Positions 4,693-42,777 of a DNA stretch of 58,795 bases are shown piece after piece. The stretch is from positions 1 through 58,795 of the forward strand of contig CANQYU010000002.1 in assembly GCA_947628145.1 (NCBI GenBank). Reading direction: 5' to 3'. Under the pieces are notes generated by a model. It was given only the letters and a program-made list of their open reading frames with translations. It did no database searches and had not been told where the DNA came from. The translations under genes were made by a program, and so were the position numbers. Within the stretch, counting starts at the first letter, position 1. Each line of letters begins with the position of its first letter. The stretch is from an uncultured Bacilli bacterium. Its GTDB lineage: Bacteria > Bacillota_I > Bacilli_A > RF39 > UBA660.

Positions 4693-4703
4693 ATGACCAC
4701 CTC

Positions 4704-5252: not shown

Positions 5253-5260
5253 ATTCTCAC

Positions 5261-5950: not shown

Positions 5951-8706
5951 GGTGTTTCCTCACAAGTGTTATCGATTGTTTCAAAATCTAATCTTACGGT
6001 TAATTCATAAATGGTATTACCTTGCTCAGCAGCCATAATGCCAATTTTAGTATCGGCTATGTCATCTTTTTCTATCCATTTCCAAAAAAGGATTATTTCT
6101 ATAGCTTCCCCATTACTAACGGAAATAAATGGGTCATTATCGGTTACTAATGGAACATCAGCGACATGGTTATCTTCATTTAAAATTTTATAATTATCTT
6201 GATTTGATTTATATTCGCCATAATAGTAGTAGGTTTTAGCTTCTATTTTAGGACTATACTTAAAGATATATCCCATATTTAAACATTTATTATTAACACA
6301 TACTTCATTTTCAGTTAAATTAATATTGGTTAAATTAATGGTTTTTCCACTATTATTATTGATAACCATGGTATATGAACCTTTAGCACCAGGATAAATA
6401 ACTTTATCTTGACCATATTTTTGTTCATATTCCTCATTATGGAATAAATCTACTTCAGTTAAATATAAAGATTTAGAATTAAAGTTTTTTTCGAACGTCT
6501 CTTTTTCATTATAGATAGCATATAAATATAAATTGCTATCTATTTCTATTTCTTCTAAACTATAAGTTTTTCCTTTTCCATCAGTTTCAGTATTATAACT
6601 TGCAATTTCATAATATTTACAATTATCGGTTGCTTTATAAGCAAGTTCATTAGCTAAATTTAAAGTACTTCCTTTAGCTAAAGTGTATTCTTTAATGGTA
6701 GTAAATTCATCATAAAAGCCTCCATTAGCATTTAAAGTAACAAGATATTTTTCATTAACATTAATTGTAATATCTAATTCTTTTACATAATTAGGAGCTA
6801 TACCTTCAATATGAATTTGATACTTGCCTTCTTGTTTAGCTCTAACTTTAAAACTTAAAGAAGTATTACCATTATCATTATTAAAAGTAATTTCTAAAGC
6901 TTCACGATTATAGGAAATATTTATACAAATATTAGGTTCTAATTCCGAACATATTTTTAAATTACCATCAATTTCTTCAACTTTGACTTTACCTAGGAAA
7001 AAGTTAGTATTTAAAACTATATTTTTTTCACCAGTTTCATTTAATAGAGATAAATCATATGTATCACTATAAGTTGTTAGATAATAATTATGACTTAAGA
7101 ACTGTAAGTTAGTAGAAGAACTCGTAGAAGCATCTTCATAATTTAAAGTTAAAGTAGTTTTTTTATCAGCAAAATTAGCTTGAGGGGTAACTTTTATTTC
7201 GCCTTTGGTTAATTCTATATTATTTTGATATAAACTTTCGATTTCCATCTTAATATCATTTAAATCATAATCTGTAATAGGTGTTCCCTCTTCGTCAATA
7301 CTATATTTTATAATAATTGAACCATCTTCTAAATAAATGATATATTCTTCTTTTTCAAAAATAATATTTCTAATTTTACGATGAACTGTTACGGTATAAG
7401 TAGTAGAACTAGTACCATTAGAAACTTCAATTTCAATTTGATTATCTCCTGGTTGTAATTGAAAGTCTTTTAAATTACTAGAGGTTTTACCATTATAGTG
7501 ATATTTTATTTCATTATTTCTATTTTCGGGTGTACCACTTAAAGTTAATTCATTTTGATTAAAAGGAACATCAACCGTATAATTAAAGCGATTTTTATTA
7601 AATTCTTCGTTAAATTTAAAATCCTCAGTTATTTCGAGATTTTCTAAATATGGTTTTTGAACTGAACCTGAAGAACCAGAAGATGGAGAATTTTTGCGTT
7701 CAATAGTTACTTCATATGTAGAACTTGTTCCATCCTCCGCGGTGACAGTTATTTCTAATTTATTGTTACCTACTTGTAATTCTAAATTTTTTAAATCCGA
7801 AACCTCTTTTCCATTAAATTTGTAGGTTAAAGTAGATTTAGAACTTGATGGGAAAGCTTCAAAACTAACTTTGTCTTGAGAATTAGAAACGCCTAAATAA
7901 TACTTATAAACATTACTTTTAAAATCTAAAGAACCAACCGAACTAGTTAAAGCTTTTAAATTATGATTACTTTCTAAATTATTTTTACTATCTGTAATAT
8001 ATACTTTATAAGTAGTGGTGTATTCTTTACCCTCATAAATTACTTTTAAAGTAATAGTTGTATTACCTTTTTTTAAACCAGTTATTTTTAAAATACCATT
8101 TTTAGCACTAGCACTCACAATATTTTTGTCATTTATAATTACTTTAACATCACCAATTAAATTTATTAAATTATAAGTAACATTTTTAATTTTATTTTCA
8201 TTTAAATATATAGTTCCTTTAGGACTTGATAATAAAATATAGCGATTACTTTCTTTAATATTTATTTCGGTTTTAGCTTGATATTTTTCACCATTAGCTT
8301 TAGTTTCTAAGATAATATTTACTTTACCTACTTGTTTAGGATTTACAACTACATATCCATCTTTTACATAACAAGTGGCAATATCAGCATTAGATGTAAT
8401 ACAAGTAAATTCTTTAGGATTAATATTTTTATAAGTATAAGTGATTTTTAAATTAGTATCGCTTAAATACATATTTACGTTTGACGTATCAAAACGTAAA
8501 TATGTATTTATATTAATTTTTTCTTCGTTAGTATCACTATTTATATCAAACTCGCCTTTATTTTCAAAAATATTACCTATTCTACCCCATAACTTAGAGG
8601 TACAACTGCAACTGGTAATTAGAGAAATAATTATAATGATAATAATAATTAATATCATTATTCGTCTTTTAGTTTTGTTACTATCTCTTTTATTATCATT
8701 ATCCAT
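5947..8706 (-). CDS. Large multidomain surface protein: N-terminal TM/possible lipobox, Ig-like repeats, two cadherin-like beta-sandwich repeats, a Listeria-Bacteroides-type repeat and a C-terminal TasA-like domain
   Basis: 919-aa ORF with RBS AAAGGAGAAA. Repeats ending ...LQVGNNKLEITVTAEDGTSSTYEVTIERK and ...LQPGDNQIEIEVSNGTSSTTYTVTVHRK are present, as is YLVTLNANGG...NLYLYAIY. The C-terminal VIYPGAKGSYTMVINN...ILFWKWIEKDDIADTKIGI...YELTVRLDF parallels the protein at 8889-9575. Confidence 0.85.
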   Translation of the reverse strand: MDNDNKRDSNKTKRRIMILIIIIIIIISLITSCSCTSKLWGRIGNIFENKGEFDINSDTNEEKININTYLRFDTSNVNMYLSDTNLKITYTYKNINPKEFTCITSNADIATCYVKDGYVVVNPKQVGKVNIILETKANGEKYQAKTEINIKESNRYILLSSPKGTIYLNENKIKNVTYNLINLIGDVKVIINDKNIVSASAKNGILKITGLKKGNTTITLKVIYEGKEYTTTYKVYITDSKNNLESNHNLKALTSSVGSLDFKSNVYKYYLGVSNSQDKVSFEAFPSSSKSTLTYKFNGKEVSDLKNLELQVGNNKLEITVTAEDGTSSTYEVTIERKNSPSSGSSGSVQKPYLENLEITEDFKFNEEFNKNRFNYTVDVPFNQNELTLSGTPENRNNEIKYHYNGKTSSNLKDFQLQPGDNQIEIEVSNGTSSTTYTVTVHRKIRNIIFEKEEYIIYLEDGSIIIKYSIDEEGTPITDYDLNDIKMEIESLYQNNIELTKGEIKVTPQANFADKKTTLTLNYEDASTSSSTNLQFLSHNYYLTTYSDTYDLSLLNETGEKNIVLNTNFFLGKVKVEEIDGNLKICSELEPNICINISYNREALEITFNNDNGNTSLSFKVRAKQEGKYQIHIEGIAPNYVKELDITINVNEKYLVTLNANGGFYDEFTTIKEYTLAKGSTLNLANELAYKATDNCKYYEIASYNTETDGKGKTYSLEEIEIDSNLYLYAIYNEKETFEKNFNSKSLYLTEVDLFHNEEYEQKYGQDKVIYPGAKGSYTMVINNNSGKTINLTNINLTENEVCVNNKCLNMGYIFKYSPKIEAKTYYYYGEYKSNQDNYKILNEDNHVADVPLVTDNDPFISVSNGEAIEIILFWKWIEKDDIADTKIGIMAAEQGNTIYELTVRLDFETIDNTCEETP

Positions 8707-8770
8707 AGTATTTCTCCTTTCTTTATTTTAAGTATTAAACTCTCAAATAAAGATATACTATAAATAAGCT

Positions 8771-8854
8771 AATAATAAGTACTTATTATTAATAAAGATG
8801 TATATCTTTATTAATAATAAGTACTTATTATTAATAAAGATGTATATCTTTATT
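8771..8854. repeat. Perfect tandem duplication of a 42-bp unit, each unit holding two palindromes
   Basis: AATAATAAGTACTTATTATTAATAAAGATGTATATCTTTATT occurs twice (8771-8812 and 8813-8854). It contains the palindrome AATAATAAGTACTTATTATT and the stem AATAAAGAT/ATCTTTATT. It sits between the TasA-like gene and the 919-aa gene. Confidence 0.9.
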
Positions 8855-8855
8855 T

Positions 8856-8874
8856 GGAAGTTTAATTAACTTCC
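8856..8874 (-). other. 7-bp stem-loop directly after the TasA-like stop codon
   Basis: GGAAGTT-TAATT-AACTTCC. There is no U-tract on the minus strand, so it is not a canonical terminator. Confidence 0.5.
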
Positions 8875-8888
8875 TTTTGTGAATAGCT

Positions 8889-9575
8889 TTATTCAGCAGT
8901 AGCAGGTGCTTGAGTAGCTGTTACAGTTACATTAAGAATATAATCTGTTCTGTTAGCGTTGGCAGATGCAATTCCTAAAGCAGTATCTGTTTTACCATCT
9001 TGGCCATCTTCATACGGCCATTCCCAAACTATAAATAATTTTTTTTCTTCTGCGCCAAAATTTTGTAATAAAGTATCCTCAGAAATTTTAGCTTCTTCAG
9101 CTAAAGTATAAGTATGGCCTGAACCACCAATTGTTTTTCCTTCAAATGACTCTGTTGGTGGCGTTTTAGTTCCTGAATCTTCTAAAATAAGGGTATATTT
9201 TAGAGGAACAGTTGATGCAGTTCCTGTTGCTTTTAAGGCTAATGAAATATTAGCTTTTACATCAGACTCATTTTTTAATGAAATAACTGCCCATCCTTTA
9301 GAACCAGGAGCAATAATTTCACTATCATTATCAGTATCACTTATAAGACTGTTATTTTTTTCATTTTGAGCATTTTTAAATATTTCAAAATCAAATGATG
9401 CTTCCTCCACAGTTCCTTCTGTTTCGTCTACAGTAAATTTCCATTTTGCTATTTTAGCTGTATCTGATGTACCTGTAAAAGTGCTTGTATATTTAGCATA
9501 TGTACCTGCAACTGAATAACCAGTAACTAATACAGCTGCTAATAATACAGCTAAAACGATTAATTTCTTTTTCAT
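8889..9575 (-). CDS. TasA/BsaA-like secreted matrix/fibre protein (major subunit candidate) with a SipW-type signal peptide
   Basis: The start is taken at the ATG preceded by AAAGGAGGTGAAACA; the upstream part of the ORF encodes that RBS. The sequence is MKKKLIVLAVLLAAVLVTGYSVAGTYAKYTSTF..., then IIAPGSKGWAVISLKN and ...FIVWEWPYEDG...DTALGI...YILNVTVTATQ. GC content looks locally higher than in the neighbours. Confidence 0.85.
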   Translation of the reverse strand: MKKKLIVLAVLLAAVLVTGYSVAGTYAKYTSTFTGTSDTAKIAKWKFTVDETEGTVEEASFDFEIFKNAQNEKNNSLISDTDNDSEIIAPGSKGWAVISLKNESDVKANISLALKATGTASTVPLKYTLILEDSGTKTPPTESFEGKTIGGSGHTYTLAEEAKISEDTLLQNFGAEEKKLFIVWEWPYEDGQDGKTDTALGIASANANRTDYILNVTVTATQAPATAE

Positions 9576-9688
9576 TGTTTCACCTCCTTTATATTTATAT
9601 TTTTGCATAAATTTTTAGTATAGGAATTTATGCTTATTCCTAATCTATGTAAACGTCATAAGACTGTTTACCTAATTTAATTTTAAGA

Positions 9689-10309
9689 CTATTTAGTCTT
9701 TTTTTCAATGGAAGAATTTGTCTCTTCTTCTTTCATACGTTTATATTCTAAATATTCTTGATGTTCTAAATCTCTTTGTTTTTTAGTAGAAATTGTAAAA
9801 CCAAGAATAAAGATAATTGTTATACCTAATAATAATATTATAATAGTTGTAGGTTCAGATAAACTTTTCATTAAAGAACCTATTCCTGGTATTCTTAAAA
9901 CATATATACCTTCAACATCTTCATATTCAACTAAGTTTTGGTCTTGAGTATTGTTATTATCTCCTTTAGTAATAAAATAATTAATGCCCTCATCTTCTAC
10001 AATATCAATTATTCTATGGGTAGTAACTGTTTCTTCACTATCTTTAAAAGCAATTATATCATTTACTTTTAAAGTTTCGGGTTTAACTATTTTAGTTATA
10101 ATTAAATCACCAGTGTAAATTTCTGTTTCCATAGAACCTGATAAAACAATAAATGGTTTATAACCAAAAATACTTGGTACTTTATCAGGATTATGATGGG
10201 ATTGATAAATTATATAAATATTAATTAATAATATGGGAATTAATATTATACATATTGCGATAATTAACCAATTACTAAATTTTTGATACCACTTTTTTTC
10301 TTTTTTCAT
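9689..10309 (-). CDS. sipW: Signal peptidase I, archaeal/ER (SipW) type, paralog 1
   Basis: 206 aa with an N-terminal TM, LSGSMETEI Ser box, THRII His box, KGDNNN box and a C-terminal TM. Its ATG overlaps the upstream stop as TAATG. Confidence 0.9.
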   Translation of the reverse strand: MKKEKKWYQKFSNWLIIAICIILIPILLINIYIIYQSHHNPDKVPSIFGYKPFIVLSGSMETEIYTGDLIITKIVKPETLKVNDIIAFKDSEETVTTHRIIDIVEDEGINYFITKGDNNNTQDQNLVEYEDVEGIYVLRIPGIGSLMKSLSEPTTIIILLLGITIIFILGFTISTKKQRDLEHQEYLEYKRMKEEETNSSIEKKTK

Positions 10310-12318
10310 TACTTCATACCTCTTTCATTTTTCTTTGTTAAAACTAACATTACCGGTTTATTTTCGTCGGGTAAATAATTTATTTGTTGTGGTTTTTCTT
10401 CAGGTTCAGAGTTTACTAAAGGTCTAGAATAACCACATGTCATACATATTTCTTCATTTTTATAAACCATAAAATTATGAGTTGTATTATATTTGATATT
10501 AACCCAGCCACAGTCTTTACAAGCATTGGTTACTGTCTCACAAATTTCAGCAGTACCTATAATTTCTCTATTATCTCTTAAGGTGTGAACGTGAGTTTGA
10601 ACTCTTTCATAAGCACAACCATCATTAGTACATTTATAAGTTATGGCGCCTTCTGCAGATAATAAAGTTTCAAGATTATGGGCACGATTTGTGGTTTTTC
10701 CACATTCACAACTTAAAGTTTCTTGTGTTTCATTATAACTCTGAACTTGCCAATTATGAGTGTGATATTCGGTTTTTTGATATCCACATTCTGGATGAAT
10801 ACATTTATAAGTCATTGAATAATCATCTGGATTTCTTGTACCACTATCTAAAGAATGAGGAATGGTTGTAGTTTCATTACAGCTACAAGCCCAATACTCA
10901 TAATTATCGTCATATTTCTCAAAAATATTAAATTTATGAACATGAGGTGGCTCAGTAGTTTTTTGATAGCCACATCCTGGATTAATACATTCATAAGTGG
11001 TAGAACCATCAGCATTAAGAGTTGATTTAAGATTATGAGAAGCTTTTTTGGTTATGCCACAAGAACATTCTAAATATTCATAATCAGCATCAAAATTTGT
11101 AATTACAAAACTATGCGTATGAGTTGGTTTTACTATTTTTTCATAATTGCAACCTTTATTCTCACAGCTATAAACTATAGAGCCATCGCTTCTCGGACTG
11201 CCGGGCGATAGTTTATGCATAACCTTATTTAACTGGCCACAACTGCAAGCCCAATATTCATAATTATCGTCATAATTTTGAAGCTTAGTATAATCATGGG
11301 TATGTTTTAGAGTATTTTTATAATCACACTCGGGGTTGGTACATTTATAAGTGATTGAGCCATCTTGGCCAACTATTTCTTCTAAATTATGAGGTATTTC
11401 GGTAGTTTTACCACATACACAAGCTTTAGTTTCGCCATTTTCATTATAAGACTTTAAAAGATTATAATTATGATTATGTTCTTTAGTTTCTATATAATTA
11501 AATTCTAAACATCTTCGTTCATCTTCATTAGTCTTAGGATTATATGTCCAATCAGTAAAAGTTAATTTTTTAGATTCTTCTAAAATAATTAATTCATTAC
11601 CACAATTTTCACAAACTTTAGTAGTAATAATTTTATAAGTTCCATTTTCATAATCAGGTATTTTATTACTAATTTCTTTATATAAATGTTCTCTTGTTTC
11701 GATTTCCTCACATACACATTGGCGAATTTCTTGAGCATTATTAAAGTTTTCCCATTCACCAAATTGATGGGTATGAGGACGCGTTTCAATGTAATCTAAT
11801 TCGTGACATTTTCGTTCGTCTTGTTTAGTCTCAGGATTATATGTCCAATCAGTAAAAGTTAACTCAATATTAGAAGACGAAACTAAAATTTCGTGATGAC
11901 AAGTAGAACAAACTTTTTTAATAATAGCTGTCAGAGTGTCGTCTTCATAACTAGGTAATTCCAAGATTTCTTCTTCATAATTATGAGTTCGCGTTTTTGT
12001 GGCACCACATGAACAGGTTTGAATTTCTTCTTTGTCATTTAAAGCTTCCCAAGCTCCATATTCATGGTTATGAGTTTCAGGTTCTAACGGCTGATTAACT
12101 TGAGGAGGCTCAGGTTTGACCTCGGGCTCTTTAGGTTTATTAGTGTCTTCAGGTTTACTAGGTTCTAAGGAAGGATTTAAATCGTCTTCATAAGAAATAC
12201 TAGGTTCGGTTGGTTCTTCCTCTTCTTTTTTAGAACATCCTCCCACGCCTAAAGTGATGGCTGTAGCTAAAAGAAAAGCAGCACCTCTTTTTAAAATATA
12301 TTTGGATTTTTTTTCCAT
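10309..12318 (-). CDS. Lipoprotein with a Pro/Glu-rich tether and about 8 His/Cys-rich repeat modules (putative metal-binding); first gene of the operon
   Basis: 669 aa. The signal peptide and lipobox are LATAITLGVGGC. Modules follow the pattern HxH-x(12-18)-CxC-x(7-9)-H-x(10-16)-Y.C-x(3-4)-C.Y. Two are about 99 aa and the others about 58 aa. Confidence 0.85.
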   Translation of the reverse strand: MEKKSKYILKRGAAFLLATAITLGVGGCSKKEEEEPTEPSISYEDDLNPSLEPSKPEDTNKPKEPEVKPEPPQVNQPLEPETHNHEYGAWEALNDKEEIQTCSCGATKTRTHNYEEEILELPSYEDDTLTAIIKKVCSTCHHEILVSSSNIELTFTDWTYNPETKQDERKCHELDYIETRPHTHQFGEWENFNNAQEIRQCVCEEIETREHLYKEISNKIPDYENGTYKIITTKVCENCGNELIILEESKKLTFTDWTYNPKTNEDERRCLEFNYIETKEHNHNYNLLKSYNENGETKACVCGKTTEIPHNLEEIVGQDGSITYKCTNPECDYKNTLKHTHDYTKLQNYDDNYEYWACSCGQLNKVMHKLSPGSPRSDGSIVYSCENKGCNYEKIVKPTHTHSFVITNFDADYEYLECSCGITKKASHNLKSTLNADGSTTYECINPGCGYQKTTEPPHVHKFNIFEKYDDNYEYWACSCNETTTIPHSLDSGTRNPDDYSMTYKCIHPECGYQKTEYHTHNWQVQSYNETQETLSCECGKTTNRAHNLETLLSAEGAITYKCTNDGCAYERVQTHVHTLRDNREIIGTAEICETVTNACKDCGWVNIKYNTTHNFMVYKNEEICMTCGYSRPLVNSEPEEKPQQINYLPDENKPVMLVLTKKNERGMK

Positions 12319-16459: not shown

Positions 16460-16648
16460 ATGTATCCAAATAAGAATTTTGGAGGAGGTTTTTTTACGAT
16501 AATAGCTATTTTTTGTTTAGCTATTTTAATATTTTATCAAATTATTATTACATTAATTTTACCTTTAAGATTTAATATTTTTATTTTACTTATAGAATCT
16601 TTTTTATTATTTTATCTATTATTTAGGATTGTTTATCCCCGGAGGTAA
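16460..16648 (+). CDS. Possible small hydrophobic membrane protein
   Basis: An ATG follows the RBS-like AGGTGGTAGGT. The product is 62 aa, almost entirely hydrophobic, and overlaps the 3' end of the convergent gene by 26 nt. Confidence 0.3.
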   Translation: MYPNKNFGGGFFTIIAIFCLAILIFYQIIITLILPLRFNIFILLIESFLLFYLLFRIVYPRR

Positions 16649-17519
16649 GATTTTTTATTAGGCTTTCCGTTTTAAAAACATAATCTAATTTAGTGCGTAA
16701 GATTTTAGTATCTAATATTTCAGAACCAGTTAAGTTAACTAAAGGTGGTATGCTTATAACAATATAAAATAAATCTTTTTCGTTATCTTTTAATGGATAA
16801 CTTTTTAAATACTTTTTAATAAGGGGTTCAAAGTCTAAATTCATGTATTCTTTTTGATAAAAAGTAATTAAATCAAGAATGGGAGAATCGATTTTGGAAT
16901 TTTCCCAACTAATGAGATAACCTTTATCACTTCTTATAAAATGGTCGGTTTCTAAATTATTATGAATAAACGCGACTCTTTCTTTTAAATCATTTTTAGT
17001 AGTATCATACCAGTTATCTAATAAATCTTCGGCATAATCTAAACCTGAAAATATTTTATAAATATTGCGCATTAAAAGATAATGACTAGGACTAGGATAT
17101 ATTTCTTCAATATAGATATTATAAAAATTTTCATAATAGTTTCTGGTATATAAAATATTATTTTTTAAATTATCATAAATTTCTTTATATTTATCTTCGG
17201 TTATTTCTTTAAAGTAAGTAGTTTTATTATGAAGAAGAGCCACTAATTCTATTAAATCTTCAGCTTTTTGTTCTTTAGGTTCTTTAACTTCATCAATATA
17301 TTCAAAGATATTAACATCATCTCTATTATTATTAGCTAAACGAGGAAAATAATCAAAATTGCGCCCTGCTAAGTAATTATAAGCTTTACTTACTTTGTCG
17401 TTATTTTTTTCTTTGATAACATAAGAACCACTGGTAGAATCAATAATTGTTACTTTCTTTTTTTTGGTAAAGCGATAAGGTTTATAAGTACTTTTTATTT
17501 CTTCTAATGCATTATTCAT
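16623..17519 (-). CDS. CotS-family kinase-like spore coat protein (YsxE-like)
   Basis: 298 aa with the phosphotransferase-like segment FIHNNLETDHFI...ISWENS. It lies immediately downstream of, and overlaps, a SpoVID-like gene, as in the Bacillus spoVID-ysxE operon. Confidence 0.6.
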   Translation of the reverse strand: MNNALEEIKSTYKPYRFTKKKKVTIIDSTSGSYVIKEKNNDKVSKAYNYLAGRNFDYFPRLANNNRDDVNIFEYIDEVKEPKEQKAEDLIELVALLHNKTTYFKEITEDKYKEIYDNLKNNILYTRNYYENFYNIYIEEIYPSPSHYLLMRNIYKIFSGLDYAEDLLDNWYDTTKNDLKERVAFIHNNLETDHFIRSDKGYLISWENSKIDSPILDLITFYQKEYMNLDFEPLIKKYLKSYPLKDNEKDLFYIVISIPPLVNLTGSEILDTKILRTKLDYVFKTESLIKNLTSGDKQS

Positions 17520-18258
17520 TAGTATTCGGAATTATTATTTTATCCTTGGCTGATAAATTAGATAAATCATTATATTCTGATAATATGTTCATATTAGAAT
17601 TATACATTGTACAGATTGTTTCTACGGTTTCACCATCACTTACCATATGAATATGATACGTAGCATAGGAATTATCGGTAGTGTTAATATTATTAATTAT
17701 AGTATTTTCATTTAAAGTTTCCTCTTTATTGATGTTCATTTCTAATTTCTCTTCTTTAGAGTCTACTACTTTAAGTTGTTCCTCGACGGGTTCTTCAGAT
17801 TTAGGGGGAATATTCTCTTCTTTTTCTTCATTATTAGAAAAATTTAAGGAAGAGTCTAAATCGGCAAAAAGAGTACTATCGGGAGTTGTAAAAAGACTAT
17901 CTGTTTCATTAACATTACGACTTTCTTCTGATTCCTCTTTAGGGCTTGCAATAACATTAAAATCAATATTTACTCTTAAAATATTATTTTCGATTACTTC
18001 ATAAGTAAAATCTTCAATTAAAAATTCAATAGTACTCTCGTCAATATTATTAGCTAAAGTAATTTCAAAGGGTAAAATATAAGAAAATGGTTCTTTATTA
18101 ATACTTACCTCATGACTTTTATAGTCACCAGAAATAATAAAGTTTCCTTTTAAAGTACCATCTTCTACTTTAGTTTCATGCTCTAAACTAATGCTGGTGA
18201 TTTCATATAACTTATGCTCAAAATCAATATCTTTTGTAAATGGGATTTTACAATTCAT
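17512..18258 (-). CDS. spoVID: SpoVID-like sporulation protein (N-terminal SpoVID domain, acidic middle, C-terminal LysM)
   Basis: 248 aa. The N-terminus is ...LYEITSISLEHETKVEDGTLKGNFIISGDYKS.... The C-terminal LysM-like segment is YHIHMVSDGETVETICTMYNSNMNILSEYNDLSNLSAKDKIIIP. Confidence 0.65.
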   Translation of the reverse strand: MNCKIPFTKDIDFEHKLYEITSISLEHETKVEDGTLKGNFIISGDYKSHEVSINKEPFSYILPFEITLANNIDESTIEFLIEDFTYEVIENNILRVNIDFNVIASPKEESEESRNVNETDSLFTTPDSTLFADLDSSLNFSNNEEKEENIPPKSEEPVEEQLKVVDSKEEKLEMNINKEETLNENTIINNINTTDNSYATYHIHMVSDGETVETICTMYNSNMNILSEYNDLSNLSAKDKIIIPNTNE

Positions 18259-20383: not shown

Positions 20384-20425
20384 CAAAATAAAAAGATACT
20401 ATAAATTGTTATAATATAGTATCTT
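20384..20425 (-). terminator. Rho-independent terminator of the four-gene membrane operon
   Basis: The minus strand reads AAGATACTATA-N11-TATAGTATCTT followed by TTTTATTTT. It overlaps the stop codon of the last gene. Confidence 0.6.
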
Positions 20426-21119
20426 ATCTTTTATTTAATTTAAATTGTTCTTGTTGTAATTCCAAGTTAATTTTAAGATTTTCGTATTCTCCTCTAAGTT
20501 CATCCATATTCAAAACATAGGAAATAGCATTTTGTTCCCCCGTTTGTAATAATTCGCCATTAAGACCTAAAATTGGGGTTACATTTTCATATTTTCCGAT
20601 TGCTTTAGAATATACTACATTTCTTTTTCTAATTTCATTTAATATACGACTTTTGGCAAATATTGGAAAATAGTTAGTTATTATTATATTTTTTTGAATA
20701 TTTTTAGTAACCATTACTAAAGAATAATATTTCATTAATAAATCTAATAATGCGGCTATTTCTTCATTTTGAATTTTAAAATTGCCTATTTGAATAAATT
20801 TTTCAATTAATATCTTAAATATTTTAAAATAGGAAAAACCTTTAGCTTGAAATTCTTCTAAGTTTTGTCGAAAGAAATCGGAATTAACATATTTTAAGAT
20901 TTCATCGATAAGTTGTCTATCAAAATTGTAAAAATTAATATAATATAAATTTAAATTTTTTTGACTTTCAATGTAAGTAGCATCTTTTTGCCATAAATCA
21001 GTAATGTACTCAACAGGCTCTAAGGCTTCATTTAATACCACTAAAGTACGTTCTATATTTCCCTTTGTGTCATGAGCCCAGTCATAAATGATTTTTTTAG
21101 GACTGTTGTAGTATGCCAT
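20424..21119 (-). CDS. Hypothetical cytoplasmic protein, last gene of the four-gene operon
   Basis: 231 aa with no hydrophobic segments. Its ATG overlaps the upstream stop as TAATG. Confidence 0.75.
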   Translation of the reverse strand: MAYYNSPKKIIYDWAHDTKGNIERTLVVLNEALEPVEYITDLWQKDATYIESQKNLNLYYINFYNFDRQLIDEILKYVNSDFFRQNLEEFQAKGFSYFKIFKILIEKFIQIGNFKIQNEEIAALLDLLMKYYSLVMVTKNIQKNIIITNYFPIFAKSRILNEIRKRNVVYSKAIGKYENVTPILGLNGELLQTGEQNAISYVLNMDELRGEYENLKINLELQQEQFKLNKR

Positions 21120-23395
21120 TAATGTTTTTCTCCATTTCCTTTACCACCGCTTTTAGATACTGAACTAGCACGTTGTTGTTCTTGGAATTGTTGATTGGCT
21201 TTTTCTTGACGAGCTTCTTGATTATATTTATCTAAGTAATCTATATAATCATTGGCTTCTTTAACGCCACTTCTTATGTCAGCGACTAGTCTATCATAAG
21301 CATCTTTATTACTTAAATTTCCGTATCTAGCAATAGCTTGTTCCATAGCAGCTCTTTTACTTACATCAGTTTCTCTAGCTAAAATCTTATCTTTAGCAAT
21401 TAATACATCTGAATATTGGGCAGTCGCTTGTTGAATATTTCTTGCAGCATTGGCAATTGCTTCCGCCTTTTTATTTTTTTCGGTTCTTTCAATATTATCC
21501 TTATTGATTTTAGCACGATTAAATTTATCTTGAGCTATAATTAAATTAGTGCCAAATTGTTTCATCATGTTTTCATTAGCAAGTTCTCTAGCTTTTTCCA
21601 CTTCTTTTTGATTATCTGAATGAAAATTATTGTCTTTCATAACCTTTTCAAATTCTTGATTAAAGACTGTTTGATAATGGGCTAATTCATTTTCTAATCT
21701 TTCAGTTTCAGATTTGGCATCAATAAAGCTTTGAACTTTTTTCCAGGTGTTTTCCAAAGCTGAAAAATTAGAATCAATTTTATCAGCTAATTCCGAAATA
21801 CGAGATACAGCTTTAGGGTTGTAATCACTAATTCCAGCCCATTCTCTTACTTTTTCACTATTTCGATGAGCTCGGTACATACGTTTAGCCTCTCTTGAAT
21901 CACTTTTAATTGGAGCTACATCTGTACCATATTCTTCATTACCTTTTTCTATTTCAGCATTAATACCTTCAATGTAAGCTTCTCTATCTTTAATTTTACT
22001 ATATTTTCTATTTTCACGATTAATTCTTCTATTAGTAGCATTTTCAATAGCATTATTCATATTACTATTCATGCTTTTAAAATCTTTAATATCACCTGAG
22101 TGCCACATAGAATTTGTTCCAGCAGATGCTCCTCCGGCTAATGCACTTGCAAAGCGATTCCAAATTTTTTTTTGATTACCTTCTTGGTCTTTAGCATTAA
22201 AGCCTTGAACTGCGGCGGTTGTAATACCTCCAAGAGCTGCGGCGGTCATAAGAGTACTTCCTAAAACATTATATTTACCACCATCAAGTCCAGTTATTTC
22301 TTTAATGATGTTTGGGGCTTGTTTTACAAATAAAATTATACCTATAATGATAAGAGCTTGAGCTATAGTTTTTACTAAAAAATTAGTTCCTTTTAAAGTA
22401 TAGGCAGCAAACACATTATCTATGCTTTTCCCGACTGTAGATATAATTAAAACGGCAAAATATAGAATAGCTATTCTAATAAATACCTCTGCAAAGGTCG
22501 ACAAGGTAGCTTTTAGCCAATTATTAAACATTTTATTAACTGTTTCATTTGGAATTATTCTGCCCAGAATTGGTAAAGGAGCAATAAGTTCATACACGGC
22601 TAATTTTACAAGTCTTAAAGCCATATCTAAACAATAGCTTAATAATACAAAGAGAACGAAAGCCCCAGCTATAATATCAAAAAACATTAAATAAGTTATT
22701 TTATCGTCTGCTATAAAATCAGCTGCATCTGCTACATCGAAAAATGTTGTATTTTCTTTAGCTTTTGCCCACATTTCACCATAAGTTACACCATTTTCTG
22801 ATCTCATTAATTCACAATCTGGACTATTACCAACACTAACTCCATCTTGAATTGTTTCATCCTCAACATCACAATAGCCATCTTCAACAATTAAAAATGT
22901 TTTCCAAATAGTTGAGGCCATGGTATATCCACCCATACGAATTGTATCTTGAGCATCACCAGTGGCGGAGCCTGCTATTAATTTTCCAATAACATTATTG
23001 TTCAAAAAAGAATCTTGAACTAAGAAAGCAAAGTCAAATATGGTTGGCATAAATGCAATTAATACTATAGATATAATAACATCTTTTATTATGTTAATAG
23101 GACTTTTTTTACCTTTTAATCCCTCTTCAGGATTTGCCATACTTTTGAGTAAAGAGTATGCGACTAAAAATAGAATTACAACTCCTATGACTACATATAT
23201 TCTTGATACAAAGCCATTAATTGCTGAAGATTCAAATATACTACCTCCATGTGCTAATACCAAAAATATTTGATATACTAAACTTATAAATGAATAAATA
23301 ATAGCATTTATCCATAAAAGTAATCTAAAGAAGAAAGCAGAAATTGCATCTCCTATATTACTCCAAAATCCTCCTAAAAAAATAAATCTCGTCAT
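21119..23395 (-). CDS. Polytopic membrane protein (about 7-8 TM, Cys-containing external loop) with a roughly 330-aa coiled-coil tail; VirB6/TrbL/TcpH-like architecture
   Basis: The start is taken at the ATG 5 nt after RBS AGGTGA. TM segments include IYSFISLVYQIFLVLA, RIYVVIGVVILFLVAYSLL and FDIIAGAFVLFVLLSYCLDMALRLVKLAVYELIAPLPILG. The tail is rich in K/E/N/Q/A heptads. Confidence 0.8.
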   Translation of the reverse strand: MTRFIFLGGFWSNIGDAISAFFFRLLLWINAIIYSFISLVYQIFLVLAHGGSIFESSAINGFVSRIYVVIGVVILFLVAYSLLKSMANPEEGLKGKKSPINIIKDVIISIVLIAFMPTIFDFAFLVQDSFLNNNVIGKLIAGSATGDAQDTIRMGGYTMASTIWKTFLIVEDGYCDVEDETIQDGVSVGNSPDCELMRSENGVTYGEMWAKAKENTTFFDVADAADFIADDKITYLMFFDIIAGAFVLFVLLSYCLDMALRLVKLAVYELIAPLPILGRIIPNETVNKMFNNWLKATLSTFAEVFIRIAILYFAVLIISTVGKSIDNVFAAYTLKGTNFLVKTIAQALIIIGIILFVKQAPNIIKEITGLDGGKYNVLGSTLMTAAALGGITTAAVQGFNAKDQEGNQKKIWNRFASALAGGASAGTNSMWHSGDIKDFKSMNSNMNNAIENATNRRINRENRKYSKIKDREAYIEGINAEIEKGNEEYGTDVAPIKSDSREAKRMYRAHRNSEKVREWAGISDYNPKAVSRISELADKIDSNFSALENTWKKVQSFIDAKSETERLENELAHYQTVFNQEFEKVMKDNNFHSDNQKEVEKARELANENMMKQFGTNLIIAQDKFNRAKINKDNIERTEKNKKAEAIANAARNIQQATAQYSDVLIAKDKILARETDVSKRAAMEQAIARYGNLSNKDAYDRLVADIRSGVKEANDYIDYLDKYNQEARQEKANQQFQEQQRASSVSKSGGKGNGEKH

Positions 23396-23404
23396 TTTAA
23401 TCAC

Positions 23405-24691
23405 CTAATTTATATTACAAGTTCCTGGGTCATATGCGCCAAGAATTGTTAGCAAAAATTTAATTAATATTGGTAAAAAGAATATAATAACAGCTATTAT
23501 AAGTCTCTTAATTGATTTTATTGTCGCTTTTTTGATAGCATCTTGATTATTGGAAACAATTGCTTTTACGTATTCAGAAATTGTGAAAACAAATAACATA
23601 ACTATAGAAGCATATTTCATAATATTAAAAACAAATTGTAAATAATAGGCTGGGCTTCCCGATTCCTCAGGATTTCCTAAATAACTATCACATCTGTTTG
23701 TTACTATAAAATCATCGGTCCAATCGTCAGCTATTCCTGAAAAAAATTCACCAAATACATGAGGTAAAGTATCCTCTACAGTATCCATAAAATTATTGAA
23801 ATTATCAATTAAAGTGTCAGCTTCTTCTCTTTCCATTTCTCCATTATCAACAGAATCTTCAATTTTTTGAGTTTCATCTTTTACGAATGCTTTCAATCTT
23901 TGATGAAGCTCATCTGCGATTCTATTGTTTGCTGGATGAGAAAAGAAAAACTGAGGAACTGCATTGCCATTGAAAAATTTTTGGTAATTATTAGTCATTA
24001 CTTCAGTAATTATATTATTTAATTCTTCGCTTGTAAGTTCTCCTGATTGAATATTATTTAAGTAATTAGTTTCAAGTTCATTTAAAATAGCTTCAGCTTG
24101 TCTGGAAATAAAACTATAAGCAAAATTATAGTTGTTTGTTGTAGAGATAAATTTGCTACCTTTACCAAAAACTACTCCATCATCATCAACACTTTGGCAA
24201 GTTTCTATTTCACTACTAACGCAAACTTGATTTCCAGAACTATAATAGCTTGGGAATGCCCAATTTTCGTATGTATCAATAATTATATTACTTGGACATT
24301 TAAAGTTATCGATATTCATTGATTTATATTCACCAAAATCATATACACCTTTACTATCCAAAATTTCTTGCCAATTTCCATATTTTTCAAAGCGCTCCGC
24401 TTTACCAGTAGCATCATTACTATAGATATATGGTTGATTCCAAGATAAGAGAAAATTCTTATGAGCAGTATCATAAAATATATTAGCAATGGCTGAATAT
24501 TCATTATTACCAGATTTATAATTAGTTTTATATTGGCATATTATAACGCATGTTTTATTATTATAACAATCAGGACGTTCAAAATCATTAGTGAAGATTA
24601 TTGGATTTTCATCATAGCCATCATCTGCAGCTTTAACTGGCATTATTCCTAATATAAATACTAATATAAATAGCAGTACATATTTTTTCAT
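23405..24691 (-). CDS. Secreted Cys-containing protein anchored by a C-terminal two-helix (VirB2-like) hairpin
   Basis: 428 aa with RBS GGAGGAG and signal peptide MKKYVLLFILVFILGIMPVKA. The C-terminus is ...ASIVMLFVFTISEYVKAIVSNNQDAIKKATIKSIKRLIIAVIIFFLPILIKFLLTILG. Confidence 0.8.
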   Translation of the reverse strand: MKKYVLLFILVFILGIMPVKAADDGYDENPIIFTNDFERPDCYNNKTCVIICQYKTNYKSGNNEYSAIANIFYDTAHKNFLLSWNQPYIYSNDATGKAERFEKYGNWQEILDSKGVYDFGEYKSMNIDNFKCPSNIIIDTYENWAFPSYYSSGNQVCVSSEIETCQSVDDDGVVFGKGSKFISTTNNYNFAYSFISRQAEAILNELETNYLNNIQSGELTSEELNNIITEVMTNNYQKFFNGNAVPQFFFSHPANNRIADELHQRLKAFVKDETQKIEDSVDNGEMEREEADTLIDNFNNFMDTVEDTLPHVFGEFFSGIADDWTDDFIVTNRCDSYLGNPEESGSPAYYLQFVFNIMKYASIVMLFVFTISEYVKAIVSNNQDAIKKATIKSIKRLIIAVIIFFLPILIKFLLTILGAYDPGTCNIN

Positions 24692-24693
24692 TT

Positions 24694-26328
24694 TTATTCT
24701 CCTCCCATCAAGCTACCACAACTATCATCTTGAGGATGAAGCATACAATTTGTGCATATTCCAAATTTTTCATTATATACATCCTCTCCACCAATAGTGG
24801 TAATAATAAAATCTATAATAGTTGGAATGAAGAAAACTATAATACCCGCGACAACTCTGATAATTAAATTTTTTACAGATTTTTTAATTTCGTCATCTTT
24901 ACTGGCAACTACTGCTTTTCCTAAATCTATAGCTCCAAAAATTATAATAATTAAAGGTACTGCTATTTTAACAAAAAATATTACCCAACCCAAAGCTCGA
25001 AAGGCTCCTAAAATATTTGGTTTTTCGCATAAGGTTGTTGTATTAAAATCAGTATCATTTTCTTTTCCGGTATCGTAAACAGGACTATCATTAGGGTCAT
25101 AAGTTGAATATAGTTTAAAGGTTAAGCAATTAGTATTATAAGTTCCCCAACCAGGTTGCTTATATTGATTATATGCTGATTCGCCTTTAGTACAATTACC
25201 ACTAGTTGACTTAATATCATAATAATATAAAACGTTATTGTCTCCTGTTGTAATGGTAGAGTCTTGGCTGTAAAAGCCATCAACATATAAAGTTGGAACT
25301 TTATTACAATTATAACGAGTTCCATTTATAAAATCAGATGGAGTTAAACTTGAAGCTTTAGTTCCATTTGCGGTTTTATTATAAGAGCAATTTACACTTT
25401 CTTCAGAAACATCGCAAGAAATTTCATAATCAGAGACATCAGTATTTGCTGATTCTAATTTATATTTGCAAGTTACATTTTCTGGTTTTGGGGGAGTAGC
25501 TGGAGTAGTCGGAGTAGTTCCACCTCCACCTGAACCACCAGACCCACCTGAACCTCCACTTTCCGGAGAATCAGATTCAGTTGGACTTCCAACTGGCTTT
25601 AATGCATAAATGCCAGAACCTTGGTTACTTATTTCATATTCGGTTGAACCCATAAAGGCTGCAATATCATCTTTGGCAATTTGAAAGGTATACTTTTTAG
25701 GGATATATCCTTGGCTACCTTGTTCTTCATTAACAGAAAAGGTAGCATTAGCTTGTTCTCCCTCTTTTAATGATATTACTTGAATTTCGGGCTCACTACT
25801 ATTTTCTATTTGTTCAATTTGTAAAGTATCTTTTGATGTATCAAAAGCAATAACAAAACCATTATACATACCTGGAATATCAGTGGTATTAGCATCTTCT
25901 AATAATTTAAGTTCATAACTTCTATACTCTGTGCTGGATTTTGCTAGTGTTACGCGGTAAGCAAATTTAAAATTTTTTTCAAATATTTTTGATACTTGTT
26001 CCGCGGTTATTTTGAGTTCATATTTTATTTCACGCATTCCAACAGATGTTTTAGTAATAGTGAAAAAGAAAAAATTCATTTCTACATTTTTTTTAAGTGC
26101 TCCAGTTTTAGTTGAACTGCCACTCTTGCTAGTATTTATTGTTTCTCCAGCAGGTGGATTTAGTTTGACAGTCATTTGGTTATTATTTCCATTAAATGAT
26201 ATATCAAATAAACCATTATTAGTACTAGCTTTTGCTTTAGAAGTATTATAAATAGCATCAGCGTAACAAATATTTATATTAAATAAAGTAATAATTAGTA
26301 AAAATATAACATACTTTATATTTCTCAT
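24694..26328 (-). CDS. Secreted two-domain protein (beta-rich domain, GGS/TTP linker, Cys-rich domain) anchored by the same C-terminal two-helix hairpin
   Basis: The start is taken at the ATG after RBS GGAGGAG (MRNIKYVIFLLIITLFNINICYADA). The linker is GGSGGSGGSGGGGTTPTTPATPPKP. The C-terminus is ...WVIFFVKIAVPLIIIIFGAIDLGKAVVASKDDEIKKSVKNLIIRVVAGIIVFFIPTIIDFIITTIGG. Confidence 0.8.
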   Translation of the reverse strand: MRNIKYVIFLLIITLFNINICYADAIYNTSKAKASTNNGLFDISFNGNNNQMTVKLNPPAGETINTSKSGSSTKTGALKKNVEMNFFFFTITKTSVGMREIKYELKITAEQVSKIFEKNFKFAYRVTLAKSSTEYRSYELKLLEDANTTDIPGMYNGFVIAFDTSKDTLQIEQIENSSEPEIQVISLKEGEQANATFSVNEEQGSQGYIPKKYTFQIAKDDIAAFMGSTEYEISNQGSGIYALKPVGSPTESDSPESGGSGGSGGSGGGGTTPTTPATPPKPENVTCKYKLESANTDVSDYEISCDVSEESVNCSYNKTANGTKASSLTPSDFINGTRYNCNKVPTLYVDGFYSQDSTITTGDNNVLYYYDIKSTSGNCTKGESAYNQYKQPGWGTYNTNCLTFKLYSTYDPNDSPVYDTGKENDTDFNTTTLCEKPNILGAFRALGWVIFFVKIAVPLIIIIFGAIDLGKAVVASKDDEIKKSVKNLIIRVVAGIIVFFIPTIIDFIITTIGGEDVYNEKFGICTNCMLHPQDDSCGSLMGGE

Positions 26329-26548
26329 AAACTCCTCCATATATATCACAAAAAAATCTTTTTAAAATTAACCATAATAATTATAACAAACTTTATATAA
26401 AAATACTAGTTTATAAATTAAAAAAAAGCATTTTTAATTAGCTTTTTTATTCTAGGATATAAATGCTTGGGGAATTAGTAAAAATTTTTTATTATTGATT
26501 ATTATTTATTTTTGAGTATATAATATATTAGTGTTAGGAGGAAGAGCC

Positions 26549-40530: not shown

Positions 40531-42777
40531 ATGGCAAAGAAGAAAAAAACTAGTTCTAGTGAAAAGGCTAATTTCCCTTATAGTGTAGAACTTACAGGAC
40601 TTATATTAATATTAATTGGTTTAATTGGATTTGGATTTGGCCCGGTTGGGGCTTTTATTAAGCAATTTGCAATGTTTTTAGTCGGAGGATGGGCTTGGAT
40701 ATTTTTACTTATAGCTTTTTTAGTTTTAGGGGCCTATATGCTTTTTAAAAGAAAATTACCAAAATTTTTTAATCAAAGATTAGTTGGTTTATATGTAATT
40801 ATTATGGTTATTTTATTAGCTAGTCATTTTGGTTTTATTGAAAAATGTAAAGGTGCTTCCGATATATTTCAATCAACCATAGACCAATATATGGAAAGAA
40901 TTGATACAATTGGAAGCAATACCGCTTTATTTACAAGTGGAGATGCTTCAATTGAAATTGGGGGAGGTATTGTCGGAGCGATTTTTGCGGTCGCGTTTAG
41001 TAGTTTATTTGGACTTACAGGTTCGAAAATTGTAGCTATTATTTTAACGATGTTTGGAGTAATTTTATTATTTAATATTACATTCGCGGATATCTTTAAA
41101 AAGCTAAAAGAGGTATTTAAAACTATGACTAGCGCAGAAGAAAGCGAAACGAAAGAAACTCCTCAACTAGAACATGAAAATAAATTATATGATTATGAAG
41201 AAGAAAAAGATTTTGAGACACCTAAAGACGATAAAATTGTGATTACAAGTATGGAAGAATTAAAAACCATGAAAGAACCTCAAGTTGTTAAAGAAAATTT
41301 AGAGCAACCAGAAAGTAAAGTATATGAAATTAATTCCAGTTATACTTTACCTCCTCTTTCTTTACTTGATGATGCTAAAGAACAAAAGAAAGTTAATTCC
41401 AATAATTATATTAGGAGTAATAAAGAAAATCTAGAACGGGTTTTAAAAGATTTTCAAATTAATGGTCAAGTAGTAGAAATTCATATAGGACCGGCGGTTA
41501 CTCAATTTGAGGTAAAAGTTCCTAGTGGTACTAAAGTTAGTCGAATTAGTGGAATAAATAAAGAAATTGCTTTAGCTTTAGCTGCAAAAGATGTTAGAAT
41601 TCAAGCCCCTATTCCGGGTAAAAGTACAATTGGAATTGAAATTCCTAATCCAACAATTAGTATGGTTAAATTTAAAGAGGTTTTAGCTTATGAAGGAAAA
41701 GAAGCAAATGGAAAAATAATTGTAGCTTTAGGTAAAGATATAATGGGTCAACCTAAATTAGCTGATTTATCAAAAATGCCTCACCTTTTAATTGCTGGTT
41801 CGACTGGTTCTGGTAAATCAGTTTGTACTAATACGATTATTTGTTCAATTTTAATGCGTTATAAACCGGATGAGGTTAAATTAATGTTAGTTGACCCGAA
41901 AAAAGTAGAATTATCCAATTATAATGGTATTCCTCACCTACTATGTCCTGTGGTAAGTGACCCCAAAAAAGCCAGTATGGCTTTACAAAAATTAGTTAGT
42001 GAGATGGAAAGAAGATACGATTTATTTAGTGAAAAAAATGTTAAGAATATTGCTGGTTATAATGAATTAATTGATAAAGAAAATAAAAATAAAGACGATA
42101 AAATCCCAAGAATGCATTATATAGTTGCAATTATTGACGAACTTGCAGATTTAATGCTTGTAGCTTCTAAAGAAGTAGAAGATTCTATTATGCGAATTAC
42201 CCAAATGGCAAGAGCCGCCGGTATTCATTTAATTGTTGCGACTCAAAGACCATCAACTGATGTTATTACCGGAGTTGTTAAAGCTAATATTCCATCTAGA
42301 ATTGCTTTTGCCGTTGCTAGTAATATTGATTCCCGAACTATTTTAGATTCTAGTGGCGCGGAAAAATTATTAGGTAAAGGTGATATGTTATTCTTACCAA
42401 TGGGAGAAAATGTGCCAACACGTATTCAAGGATGTTTTATTGACGATGCGGAAATTGCAAGAATAATTGATTATGTATGTAAACAACAAAATGCCCACTA
42501 CGATAGTGAAATGGAAAACTTAGATGCAACAGGAAATGGGATTCATGGTTTACCTGACGAAAAGGAAGAATATGATGACCCTCTTTATAATGAAATTGTC
42601 GAATTTGCTATTCAAACAGGTAAAGTTAGTACTTCCCTATTACAAAGAAGATTTAGACTAGGTTATAATAGAGCAGCAAGAGTGGTCGATTTACTAGAAG
42701 AAAGAGGAATTGTAGGGCCAGCAAATGGTTCTAAACCACGAGAGGTTTTAGTAAAGTTAGAAAATAAGACTGAATAA
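40531..42777 (+). CDS. ftsK: DNA translocase FtsK/SpoIIIE
   Basis: 748 aa with N-terminal TM helices, GSTGSGKSV Walker A, DELADL and a gamma-domain-like C-terminus [21 protein letters not shown]. Confidence 0.92.

Follow-up and report, generated by a model that had tools for sequence, protein, structure and literature searches.

Type IV secretion systems (T4SSs) of Gram-positive bacteria have been described as lacking VirB2 pilins and as serving DNA transfer almost exclusively; an essential T4SS that Patescibacteria have co-opted is presented as the exception (PMC12102498, PMC12857230). In these monoderm bacteria (for example, Southlakia epibionticum), the system is chromosomal, has no relaxase, is presumed to serve a nonconjugative role, and joins VirB3, VirB4, and VirB6 to arrays of divergent VirB2-like pilins detected with Pfam family PF18895 (PMC12102498, PMC12857230). 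Here we analyze four genes, g1 to g4, that occupy positions 20424-26328 on the minus strand of a 58,795-nucleotide stretch of contig CANQYU010000002.1, from an uncultured Bacilli bacterium; this whole stretch is called the window below. We favor, with a probability of roughly 0.6, the reading that the quartet supplies the envelope module for a machine that derives from a T4SS, is fixed in the chromosome of an uncultured gut Bacilli lineage, and has a VirB4 motor that would build a display stalk. On the best reading, the apparatus is derived from a T4SS, lacks VirD4, serves pilus-like surface display or contact, and carries strain-variable cassettes. By analogy, it resembles the chromosomal T4SS of Patescibacteria more closely in function than it does any other system.

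We compared the window with 61 related loci (numbered with the prefix L) and with three further short contigs from the window's own organism (L062-L064). The related loci come from metagenome-assembled genomes (MAGs) named as uncultured Bacilli, "Mycoplasma sp. CAG:776," "Tenericutes UMGS," Candidatus Caccenecus, and Candidatus Coprovivens (Bacilli incertae sedis). A g3 tree separates an ICE-type group (18 loci; ICE, integrative and conjugative element) from a murC-type group (42 loci plus the window). While the Patescibacteria system keeps the coupling protein TrsD, is reported to be related to MPF-FATA, and uses small pilins, the murC-type system has no type IV coupling protein (T4CP) in its cluster, bears ectodomains of ~30 to 490 amino acids (aa) on its pilin hairpins, has a VirB4 split in three and an extended VirB6 (700 to 850 aa) whose polymorphic tail is matched by a partner gene, and resides in a Bacilli host. 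The shared features (no relaxase; VirB2-like proteins plus VirB3, VirB4, and VirB6) are found in the relatives; the window itself has only the pilin-like and VirB6-like genes. Helicobacter pylori ComB is likewise a chromosomal T4SS without VirD4 or relaxase that has VirB2-, VirB3-, VirB4-, and VirB6-like parts, but it is a diderm DNA-uptake machine with ComB7 to ComB10.

One tie between the quartet and T4SSs is g3 (21119-23395, minus strand; 758 aa), whose membrane domain (residues 1 to 375; 22271-23395) we characterized by NCBIfam matches, an AlphaFold model, Foldseek matches, and invariant alignment columns. The model (116 homologues; mean confidence [pLDDT], 79) has six long membrane helices, where a preliminary description of this DNA, made from the sequence alone, had counted seven or eight. 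It also has an outer loop of ~100 aa (residues 133 to 236) with invariant Cys175 and Cys194 and, at its cytoplasmic end, a conserved FDIIAG...APLPILG segment and an ITGLD motif; both the external loop and the segment had been picked out at the start. The best named match is NCBIfam NF045889, Mbov_0396 (E = 2.6e-9; 37 bits against a cutoff of 70), followed by NF045890, pLS20_p028 (E = 8.7e-5; 21.5 bits against a cutoff of 150). Mbov_0396 is the membrane protein encoded beside VirB4 of the Mycoplasma bovis ICE, and a recent review views the corresponding Mycoplasma ICE protein, CDS16, as the VirB6-like component (PMC12857230). When the g3 model was compared with 350,542 PDB chains, the best four Foldseek matches were all TrwI/VirB6 of R388 (probability, 0.85 to 1.0; target-normalized TM-score, 0.36 to 0.57; root mean square deviation, 7 to 10 Å; E = 0.2 to 0.4). 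Across the 116 homologues, 38 columns are invariant, and the window's g3 keeps all 38. With at least five helices and a large extracytoplasmic loop, it has the layout of a polytopic VirB6 protein; adjacency to virB3 and virB4 is missing in the window and present in 26 related loci. Sequence and model together identify g3 as a probable extended VirB6-type polytopic protein. The comparison with VirB6 and TcpH made in the preliminary description is supported by the subthreshold NCBIfam matches, the four TrwI structures, and the VirB3/VirB4 neighbors in relatives. More than 180 g3 homologues, the best 49% identical, are unannotated. No Pfam family matched g3 at E ≤ 1, and tblastn of its membrane domain against plasmids found no match; a g3 profile run against PDB sequences retrieved only low-complexity helical proteins such as TolA, which we discarded.

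Two families of conjugative elements offer further comparisons. The Mycoplasma ICE (CDS13-CDS17; PMC6030558) supplies the best-scoring named families for both g3 and the relatives' ATPase; it too places a VirB6-like gene before VirB4, encodes surface proteins in the same element, and does without VirB1 and VirB8. Nevertheless, the scores fall under the cutoffs (37 versus 70 and 349 versus 590), and the murC-type cluster has no CDS5/VirD4, DDE transposase, or inverted repeats and is fixed beside murC. Moreover, the host here is walled and has sporulation-type genes, and its surface proteins are anchored by hairpins instead of being lipoproteins. The second comparison is with the extended VirB6 proteins of MPF-FA systems (TcpH of pCW3, ConG of ICEBs1, and Orf15 of Tn916), which also measure 700 to 900 aa and have a polytopic N terminus and a large hydrophilic C terminus; in these systems a TcpE-type VirB3 precedes VirB4, as in our relatives, and in ICEBs1 a small cognate protein has ConG as its partner in specificity (10.1101/2021.01.25.428195). 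MPF-FA systems differ in being conjugative, with T4CP, relaxase, hydrolase, and VirB8-like proteins, and in being described as VirB2-less. Neither Pfam nor tblastn against plasmids gave a sequence match of g3 to TcpH/ConG/Orf15-type proteins.

The two surface proteins extend the likeness to VirB2. From its N terminus, g1 (24694-26328, minus strand; 544 aa) comprises a signal peptide, a domain that looks beta-rich by eye, a linker of GGS/TP composition (GGSGGSGGSGGGGTTPTTPATPPKP; 25486-25563), a Cys-rich domain, a two-helix hairpin, and a Cys-bearing tail; the hairpin module with its tail, of the T4SS_pilin type, spans 24694-25029. Hydropathy places the two helices at ~439 to 470 and 483 to 515, with seven Cys residues within residues 287 to 434 and three more in the tail. 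In g2 (23405-24691, minus strand; 428 aa), the AlphaFold model (pLDDT, 83) has a signal peptide, a beta domain (residues 48 to 189), a helical bundle (190 to 324), and a hairpin (347 to 416). Hydropathy puts the helices at ~351 to 380 and 389 to 421, preceded by a Cys-containing ectodomain and followed by C425 in the tail; the hairpin module covers 23405-23692. Invariant Cys residues lie on the outer face at both sides of each hairpin, and in g2 they are Cys334 and Cys425. Only the hairpins are conserved within g1 and g2. That of g1 is 48 to 57% identical to the g1-type hairpins of relatives, and g1-type and g2-type hairpins align with each other at an hhalign probability of 99.3%, which makes the two paralogues; the signal peptides, Cys-containing ectodomains, and common two-helix endings noticed in the preliminary description stand.

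Taken alone, the window's hairpins match PF18895 (T4SS_pilin; gathering cutoff, 26.6 bits) weakly: 12 bits for g1 (E = 0.23; orthologous hairpins score 21 to 30 bits) and 14.5 bits for g2 (E = 0.037). Among hairpin segments from the large proteins of murC-type loci, however, 34 of 38 match PF18895 at E ≤ 1, and it is by far the commonest family; this agrees with the VirB2-like anchors first proposed. The same hairpin also occurs in relatives as small proteins of 110 to 140 aa, three of which pass the gathering score (27.8 to 30.0 bits) with CagC, the Helicobacter VirB2, as second match. Like pilins, g1 and g2 have two hydrophobic helices after the signal peptide, and the cytoplasmic loop between these helices is short and basic; unlike mature pilins (~70 to 120 aa), they are large, with ectodomains of ~410 and ~310 aa. 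We read them, from their sequences, as putative VirB2-type pilin hairpins with large, fast-evolving ectodomains inserted between signal peptide and hairpin. The g1 N-terminal ectodomain has no detectable relative in Pfam or PDB; its PDB matches were to artificial GGS linkers and were set aside, and a Foldseek comparison of g2 with PDB and viral models yielded nothing meaningful, either for its ectodomain or for a VirB5-like or VirB2-like fold. The g2 hairpin also weakly matches the N-terminal part of the Mbov_0396 model. An alignment of the hairpin with the second and third helices of g3 (hhalign E = 1e-4; probability, 26 to 54%, versus 0.2 to 0.4 in controls) is suggestive only, and we make no use of it; hhalign detected no relation between the hairpin and VirB3. 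A fourth pilin-hairpin gene (422 aa) lies outside the quartet, downstream of rumA, in L014 (14560-15828) and has no counterpart in the window.

All 42 murC-type loci contain the quartet, with murC adjoining wherever the upstream sequence suffices, and their synteny is that of the window: dapF-murE-PTAC-dus, a divergent murC, and then g1-g2-g3-g4. In 26 of them (about two-thirds), a trio of genes encoding ~102, 183, and 595 aa follows, either directly after g4 or after a PDDEXK_2 transposase-like insertion. The trio is collinear with the 894-aa Mbov_0397 VirB4 model (positions 2 to 96, 103 to 276, and 294 to 891, the last at E = 5e-104), and its first member also matches TcpE/PrgI, the VirB3 families of Gram-positive bacteria; by sequence, the trio is a three-way split VirB3-VirB4 ATPase. 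The window has no such trio within the 20 kb past g4, nor do about a dozen loci with 2 to 8 kb past g4, several of which have rumA instead. Thus "orphan," the term first applied to the quartet, holds locally, since no ATPase is encoded in the contig, and fails for the family.

One explanation for the missing trio is that it was lost in the window's lineage, leaving a stand-alone, motorless anchor in which two surface proteins sit statically on a VirB6-like scaffold. This would fit the absence of any ATPase within 20 kb downstream or 32 kb upstream, the dozen or so related loci that also lack the trio, and the quartet's own candidate promoter and terminator. On the other hand, the trio, where seen, is more constrained than MurC, so its loss seems improbable; quartets with and without an adjoining trio are interleaved in the g3 tree; in L020 the trio is merely displaced, its VirB3-like gene reappearing 7.4 kb beyond rumA; and upstream of the L035 quartet, at a distance of 6.6 kb, there is a VirD4 gene. 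We consider loss of the motor unlikely and think that VirB3-VirB4 genes probably exist elsewhere in this genome, on another contig; a rearrangement would have put rumA behind g4. Failing such genes, the quartet would act as a static display scaffold.

ICE-type clusters contain at least one small pilin, VirB6, VirB3, a split VirB4, a SpoIID/lysozyme/M23 hydrolase, and VirD4. The 26 trio-bearing murC-type loci have no VirD4, hydrolase, or relaxase-like gene beside the cluster, and within 10 kb of the murC-type quartets we found no VirD4, relaxase, or hydrolase (save in L035) and no recombinase. The L035 exception (2-1700) shares 55% identity with VirD4 of the ICE type; in that locus, as in the window, rumA follows the quartet. 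In "Mycoplasma sp. CAG:776," two scaffolds (L059 and L055) carry a murC-linked cluster without VirD4 and a second VirB6-like gene with VirD4, so the two kinds coexist in one genome. A T4SS that is scattered yet still conjugative, with VirD4, relaxase, hydrolase, and VirB4 genes elsewhere as in the dispersed T4SS of Rickettsia, would transfer DNA, and related genomes with complete ICE-type clusters (VirD4 and hydrolase included), the presence of both cluster kinds in CAG:776, and the Mycoplasma ICE proteins as nearest named families all lend it some color. We nevertheless regard it as quite unlikely: murC-type clusters are syntenic and codiverge with core genes, their VirB6 proteins group apart from those of the ICE type in the g3 tree, and VirD4, relaxase, and hydrolase genes are missing within 10 kb of them, L035 excepted.

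Several neighbors of the related clusters deserve mention in their own right. L061 (3917-9949) has six consecutive pilin-hairpin genes (137 to 438 aa) before its ICE-type VirB6-like gene, an arrangement that recalls the VirB2 arrays of Patescibacteria. Several murC-type loci encode, on the downstream side of VirB4, collagen-like GPT-repeat proteins that are BclA-like judging from their translations (for example, L001 16790-17692 and 18542-20029). Just upstream of PTAC-dus-murC in L005 (1-4616) is a set that looks like a type VII-like secretion locus, beside the T4SS-derived cluster: a 1,535-aa EssC-like protein with recorded FtsK_SpoIIIE matches, whose last ~590 aa lie within the locus, two proteins of ~100 aa, and a DUF87 ATPase.

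Substitution rates distinguish the motor from the surface parts. For the 595-aa VirB4 part, the ratio of nonsynonymous to synonymous rates (dN/dS) is 0.02 to 0.06 at dS values of 0.7 to 1.3, compared with 0.14 to 0.25 at dS values of 0.5 to 1.0 for MurC in the same genome pairs; amino acid identity is 93 to 98% versus 70 to 87%. Because the dS of VirB4 equals that of MurC, the ATPase has diverged along with the genomes instead of being recently transferred, and its low dN/dS together with this codivergence argues for vertical inheritance and domestication. Both g2 and g3 evolve fast (dN/dS, 0.4 to 0.7). A decaying, functionless remnant of an ICE once integrated beside murC would account for the lack of mobility and coupling genes and for a gene content that is a subset of the ICE-type cluster. 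Yet the open reading frames (ORFs) are intact in more than 40 loci with saturated synonymous sites, the VirB4 ratio is minute and even those of g2 and g3 are not ~1, invariant residues are retained, and exchange of whole allelic cassettes between near-identical strains (see below) implies selection. Since the window's g3 keeps every one of its invariant columns, we judge decay to be very unlikely. Domestication of a conjugative channel, the first of two alternatives offered in the preliminary description, is instead supported by the intact ORFs, the constraint on VirB4, and the fixed site.

The cassettes concern the cytoplasmic side. The tail of g3 (residues 376 to 758; 21119-22270), delimited from the AlphaFold model, from tail/g4 typing, and from a recombination breakpoint, comprises ~380 aa rich in K, E, N, and A: a disordered linker and then a helical domain predicted with a pLDDT of >90 over residues 470 to 750, rather than the coiled coil first suggested. 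Downstream, g4 (20424-21119, minus strand; 231 aa) encodes a protein with no transmembrane or hydrophobic segment, no signal peptide, and no Cys. It has no relative in Pfam, NCBIfam, PHROG, PADLOC, or PDB; a word-indexed homology search returned only g4 itself, whereas a full HMMER search of 1.84 billion cluster representatives returned 25 relatives. Neither a g4 profile run against PDB nor Pfam searches with 20 members of the g4 family produced a consistent match. Across Pfam, PHROGs, and PADLOC, the four proteins fell into no significant family, and their weak matches (RecU, DnaG HBD, VMAP, and Cmr1) were judged to be noise. There are at least seven g4 types, with that of the window recurring in L007, L008, L014, L018, and L039. 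A 270-aa type of g4 occurs in twelve loci, precisely those that make up the second g3-tail cluster, and g4 similarity correlates with tail similarity (Spearman, 0.57) but not with that of the membrane domain (0.02). L001 and L059 are ~100% identical in DNA except over one segment, which begins where the g3 membrane domain stops and includes all of g4. In the pair L001 and L003, the differing segment opens with g2 and likewise includes g4. Thus, both the tail with g4 and the g2-g3-g4 block are swapped as units within species. In L001 (12896-13714) and L003 (12870-13688), a PDDEXK_2 transposase-like gene borders the variable cassette and separates g4 from the VirB3-like gene. This exchange as units, together with exact cosegregation, argues for a specific interaction between tail and g4, and we read g4, from these sequence patterns, as the likely cognate cytoplasmic partner of the polymorphic g3 tail; a soluble cytoplasmic partner is also what had been proposed for it. 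The same exchange suggests that the exposed parts are under diversifying or balancing selection.

Such a pattern invites another interpretation, in which the g3 tail and g4 form a toxin-immunity pair or an exclusion-type lock and key for kin discrimination. In favor of such a recognition or antagonism locus, a conserved N terminus is joined to a C terminus and a downstream gene that both vary, with exchange as a cassette, and VirB6 homologues are known targets of cognate exclusion proteins, as in ConG-YddJ (10.1101/2021.01.25.428195). We find this distinctly improbable, however: the tail is predicted from topology to be cytoplasmic and is all-helical with no enzyme-like match, known exclusion proteins, unlike the soluble g4, are membrane proteins or lipoproteins that act on an outer loop, and no PADLOC or toxin-family match was obtained.

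We therefore return to the display machine and to how it might work. VirB2, VirB3, VirB4, and VirB6 make up the pilus-building part of a T4SS, for which the coupling protein is dispensable; in Agrobacterium, pilus formation requires VirB4 and not VirD4. Since this set builds a pilus without a coupling protein, a stalk that does without VirD4 can be proposed. In a model of R388, a VirB6 pentamer serves as the platform that recruits VirB2 (PMC12857230). By the proposed mechanism, the split VirB4 motor would pull the g1 and g2 hairpins out of the membrane, and an oligomer of g3 would stack or hold them as a short, pilus-like stalk across the wall. Displayed in this way outside the cell, the g1 and g2 ectodomains would serve contact or adhesion, and the stalk might double as a conduit. 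Docking or gating the motor, or selecting what passes through, would fall to the pair formed by the g3 tail and g4. More speculatively, the Cys pairs that flank each hairpin may staple its outer ends, in the manner of T-pilin cyclization.

Several points weigh against this machine. The pilus, its polymerization, and the surface exposure of g1 and g2 are predictions from sequence. We know of no citable precedent for an N-terminal domain of 300 to 430 aa on a pilin, and such a domain might block polymerization. Gram-positive T4SSs normally need VirB8-like and wall-hydrolase components, and neither is present. The whole 58.8-kb contig has no ATPase gene, g3 falls under every curated profile cutoff, its Foldseek E values for TrwI reach only 0.2 to 0.4, and the window's own hairpins, at 12 and 14.5 bits, stay below the 26.6 bits of PF18895. 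Finally, the g1 and g2 ectodomains do not covary with the outer loop of g3; a type-specific contact between g2 and that loop was considered and dropped because covariation of ectodomain and loop was weak (0.12 to 0.22).

The layout of the locus fits a single transcription unit. The four ORFs are intact and tightly coupled, each junction fitting the packed minus-strand genes and ribosome-binding sites originally described. We count g1 from its most likely start, the ATG at 26328 behind GGAGGAG, although the mechanical ORF reaches farther, to a GTG at 26349. Between g1 and g2 there are 2 nucleotides, with GGGAGGAG inside the 3′ end of g1. The g2/g3 spacing is 0 to 9 nucleotides, depending on the start chosen for g3: the ATG at 23395 behind AGGTGA is the most likely one, while starting from the GTG at 23404 would lengthen g3 to 761 aa. 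At the g3/g4 junction, GGAG precedes a TAATG in which the two genes overlap. The unit is closed by an intrinsic terminator (20385-20425, minus strand) that begins at the g4 stop codon: an 11-bp stem (20415-20425 paired with 20393-20403) followed by UUUUAUUUU. Its folding energy of −10.4 to −11.7 kcal/mol (z = −3.9) was equaled by none of 200 shuffled sequences, which upholds the terminator placed earlier at 20384-20425; our consensus terminator scan missed this hairpin because it demands at least three G-C pairs. In the divergent murC/g1 intergenic region, a candidate operon promoter read from the sequence (26374-26401, minus strand) includes an extended −10-like element, TGTTATAAT (26380-26388), and a TTTATA-16-TATTAT match; the latter is a consensus match only, of a kind no more frequent here than in shuffled sequence. 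Just past the terminator, the promoter scan placed a promoter-like site for rumA, TTGCTA-16-TATAAT (20386-20359).

Both flanks are core genes, as first reported: the rumA product has TRAM and tRNA_U5-meth_tr domains, and murC is 67 to 83% identical to Mur-ligase genes of relatives. The GC content of g1 to g4 (0.25 to 0.31) lies inside the range of neighboring core genes. A scan for att-like repeats and compositional shifts, as the preliminary description had advised, turned up no convincing direct or att-like repeats around the quartet and no shift in composition in the window, whose sole tRNA is at 95-187. A tblastn search of the window with the relatives' VirB3, TraC-like, VirB4, VirD4, hydrolase, and serine recombinase sequences returned nothing, confirming the absence of VirB4/VirD4 and hydrolase already noted. 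The marks of a conjugative element (relaxase, VirD4, VirB4, hydrolase, and integrase or att sites) are likewise missing from the window, where relaxase profiles were not applied to 26.5 to 58.8 kb. Nor did the wider comparison place any of the four proteins in an unrelated family: among murC-type loci the quartet is co-conserved and lies outside complete conjugative elements, and the window's copy is intact.

Other genes of the window bear on its cell surface and its host. An ORF of 748 aa at 40531-42777 (plus strand), matched in tblastn by a fragment of EssC (E = 2e-6), includes a P-loop region of the FtsK/SpoIIIE type and is probably the housekeeping DNA translocase, not a T4SS coupling protein. 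A minus-strand cluster at 2845-12318 encodes large, secreted-looking proteins and two S24/S26 signal-peptidase-like genes (5261-5950 and 9689-10309). Among the former, a 919-aa protein (5947-8706) has cadherin-like beta-sandwich domains, and three others (615, 182, and 669 aa) have no Pfam match; the cluster may be a surface-fiber locus with dedicated peptidases. Its 182-aa and 615-aa pair (2845-5252) was examined as a TraC-like/VirB4 candidate and rejected, having neither a Pfam match nor tblastn similarity. Just past rumA (16623-18258, minus strand) are two sporulation-type genes, one for a protein with SpoVID-N and LysM (Pfam scores at or just under the cutoffs) and one CotS-like by eye, without Pfam support; they are at odds with the "Mycoplasma" and "Tenericutes" labels of related MAGs.

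In the literature searched, we found no description of this system, and no paper that ties these Bacilli (RFN20-type names) to a T4SS. The locus would represent a second, unrelated monoderm lineage in which a T4SS derivative without relaxase or VirD4 occupies a fixed chromosomal site, with a motor more constrained than cell wall synthesis genes and pilin-family proteins fused to big surface domains. A bolder and tentative possibility is that a conjugation machine here became a core, vertically inherited surface organelle, in which the ultraconserved split VirB4 would build the stalk, and strain-specific cassettes (pilin ectodomains, whole VirB6, and the VirB6 tail together with g4) would determine the choice of partner or host. 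If true, Firmicutes would have their own equivalent of the essential T4SS that epibiotic Patescibacteria carry, and the rule that Gram-positive T4SSs are VirB2-less would have a counterexample. If confirmed, the system would offer a tractable case for what a T4SS does after conjugation ends, a route to studying both pilus-type assembly through a Gram-positive wall and the dialogue between a VirB6 tail and its cytoplasmic partner, and a function for gut-metagenome proteins that match no curated family above its cutoff.

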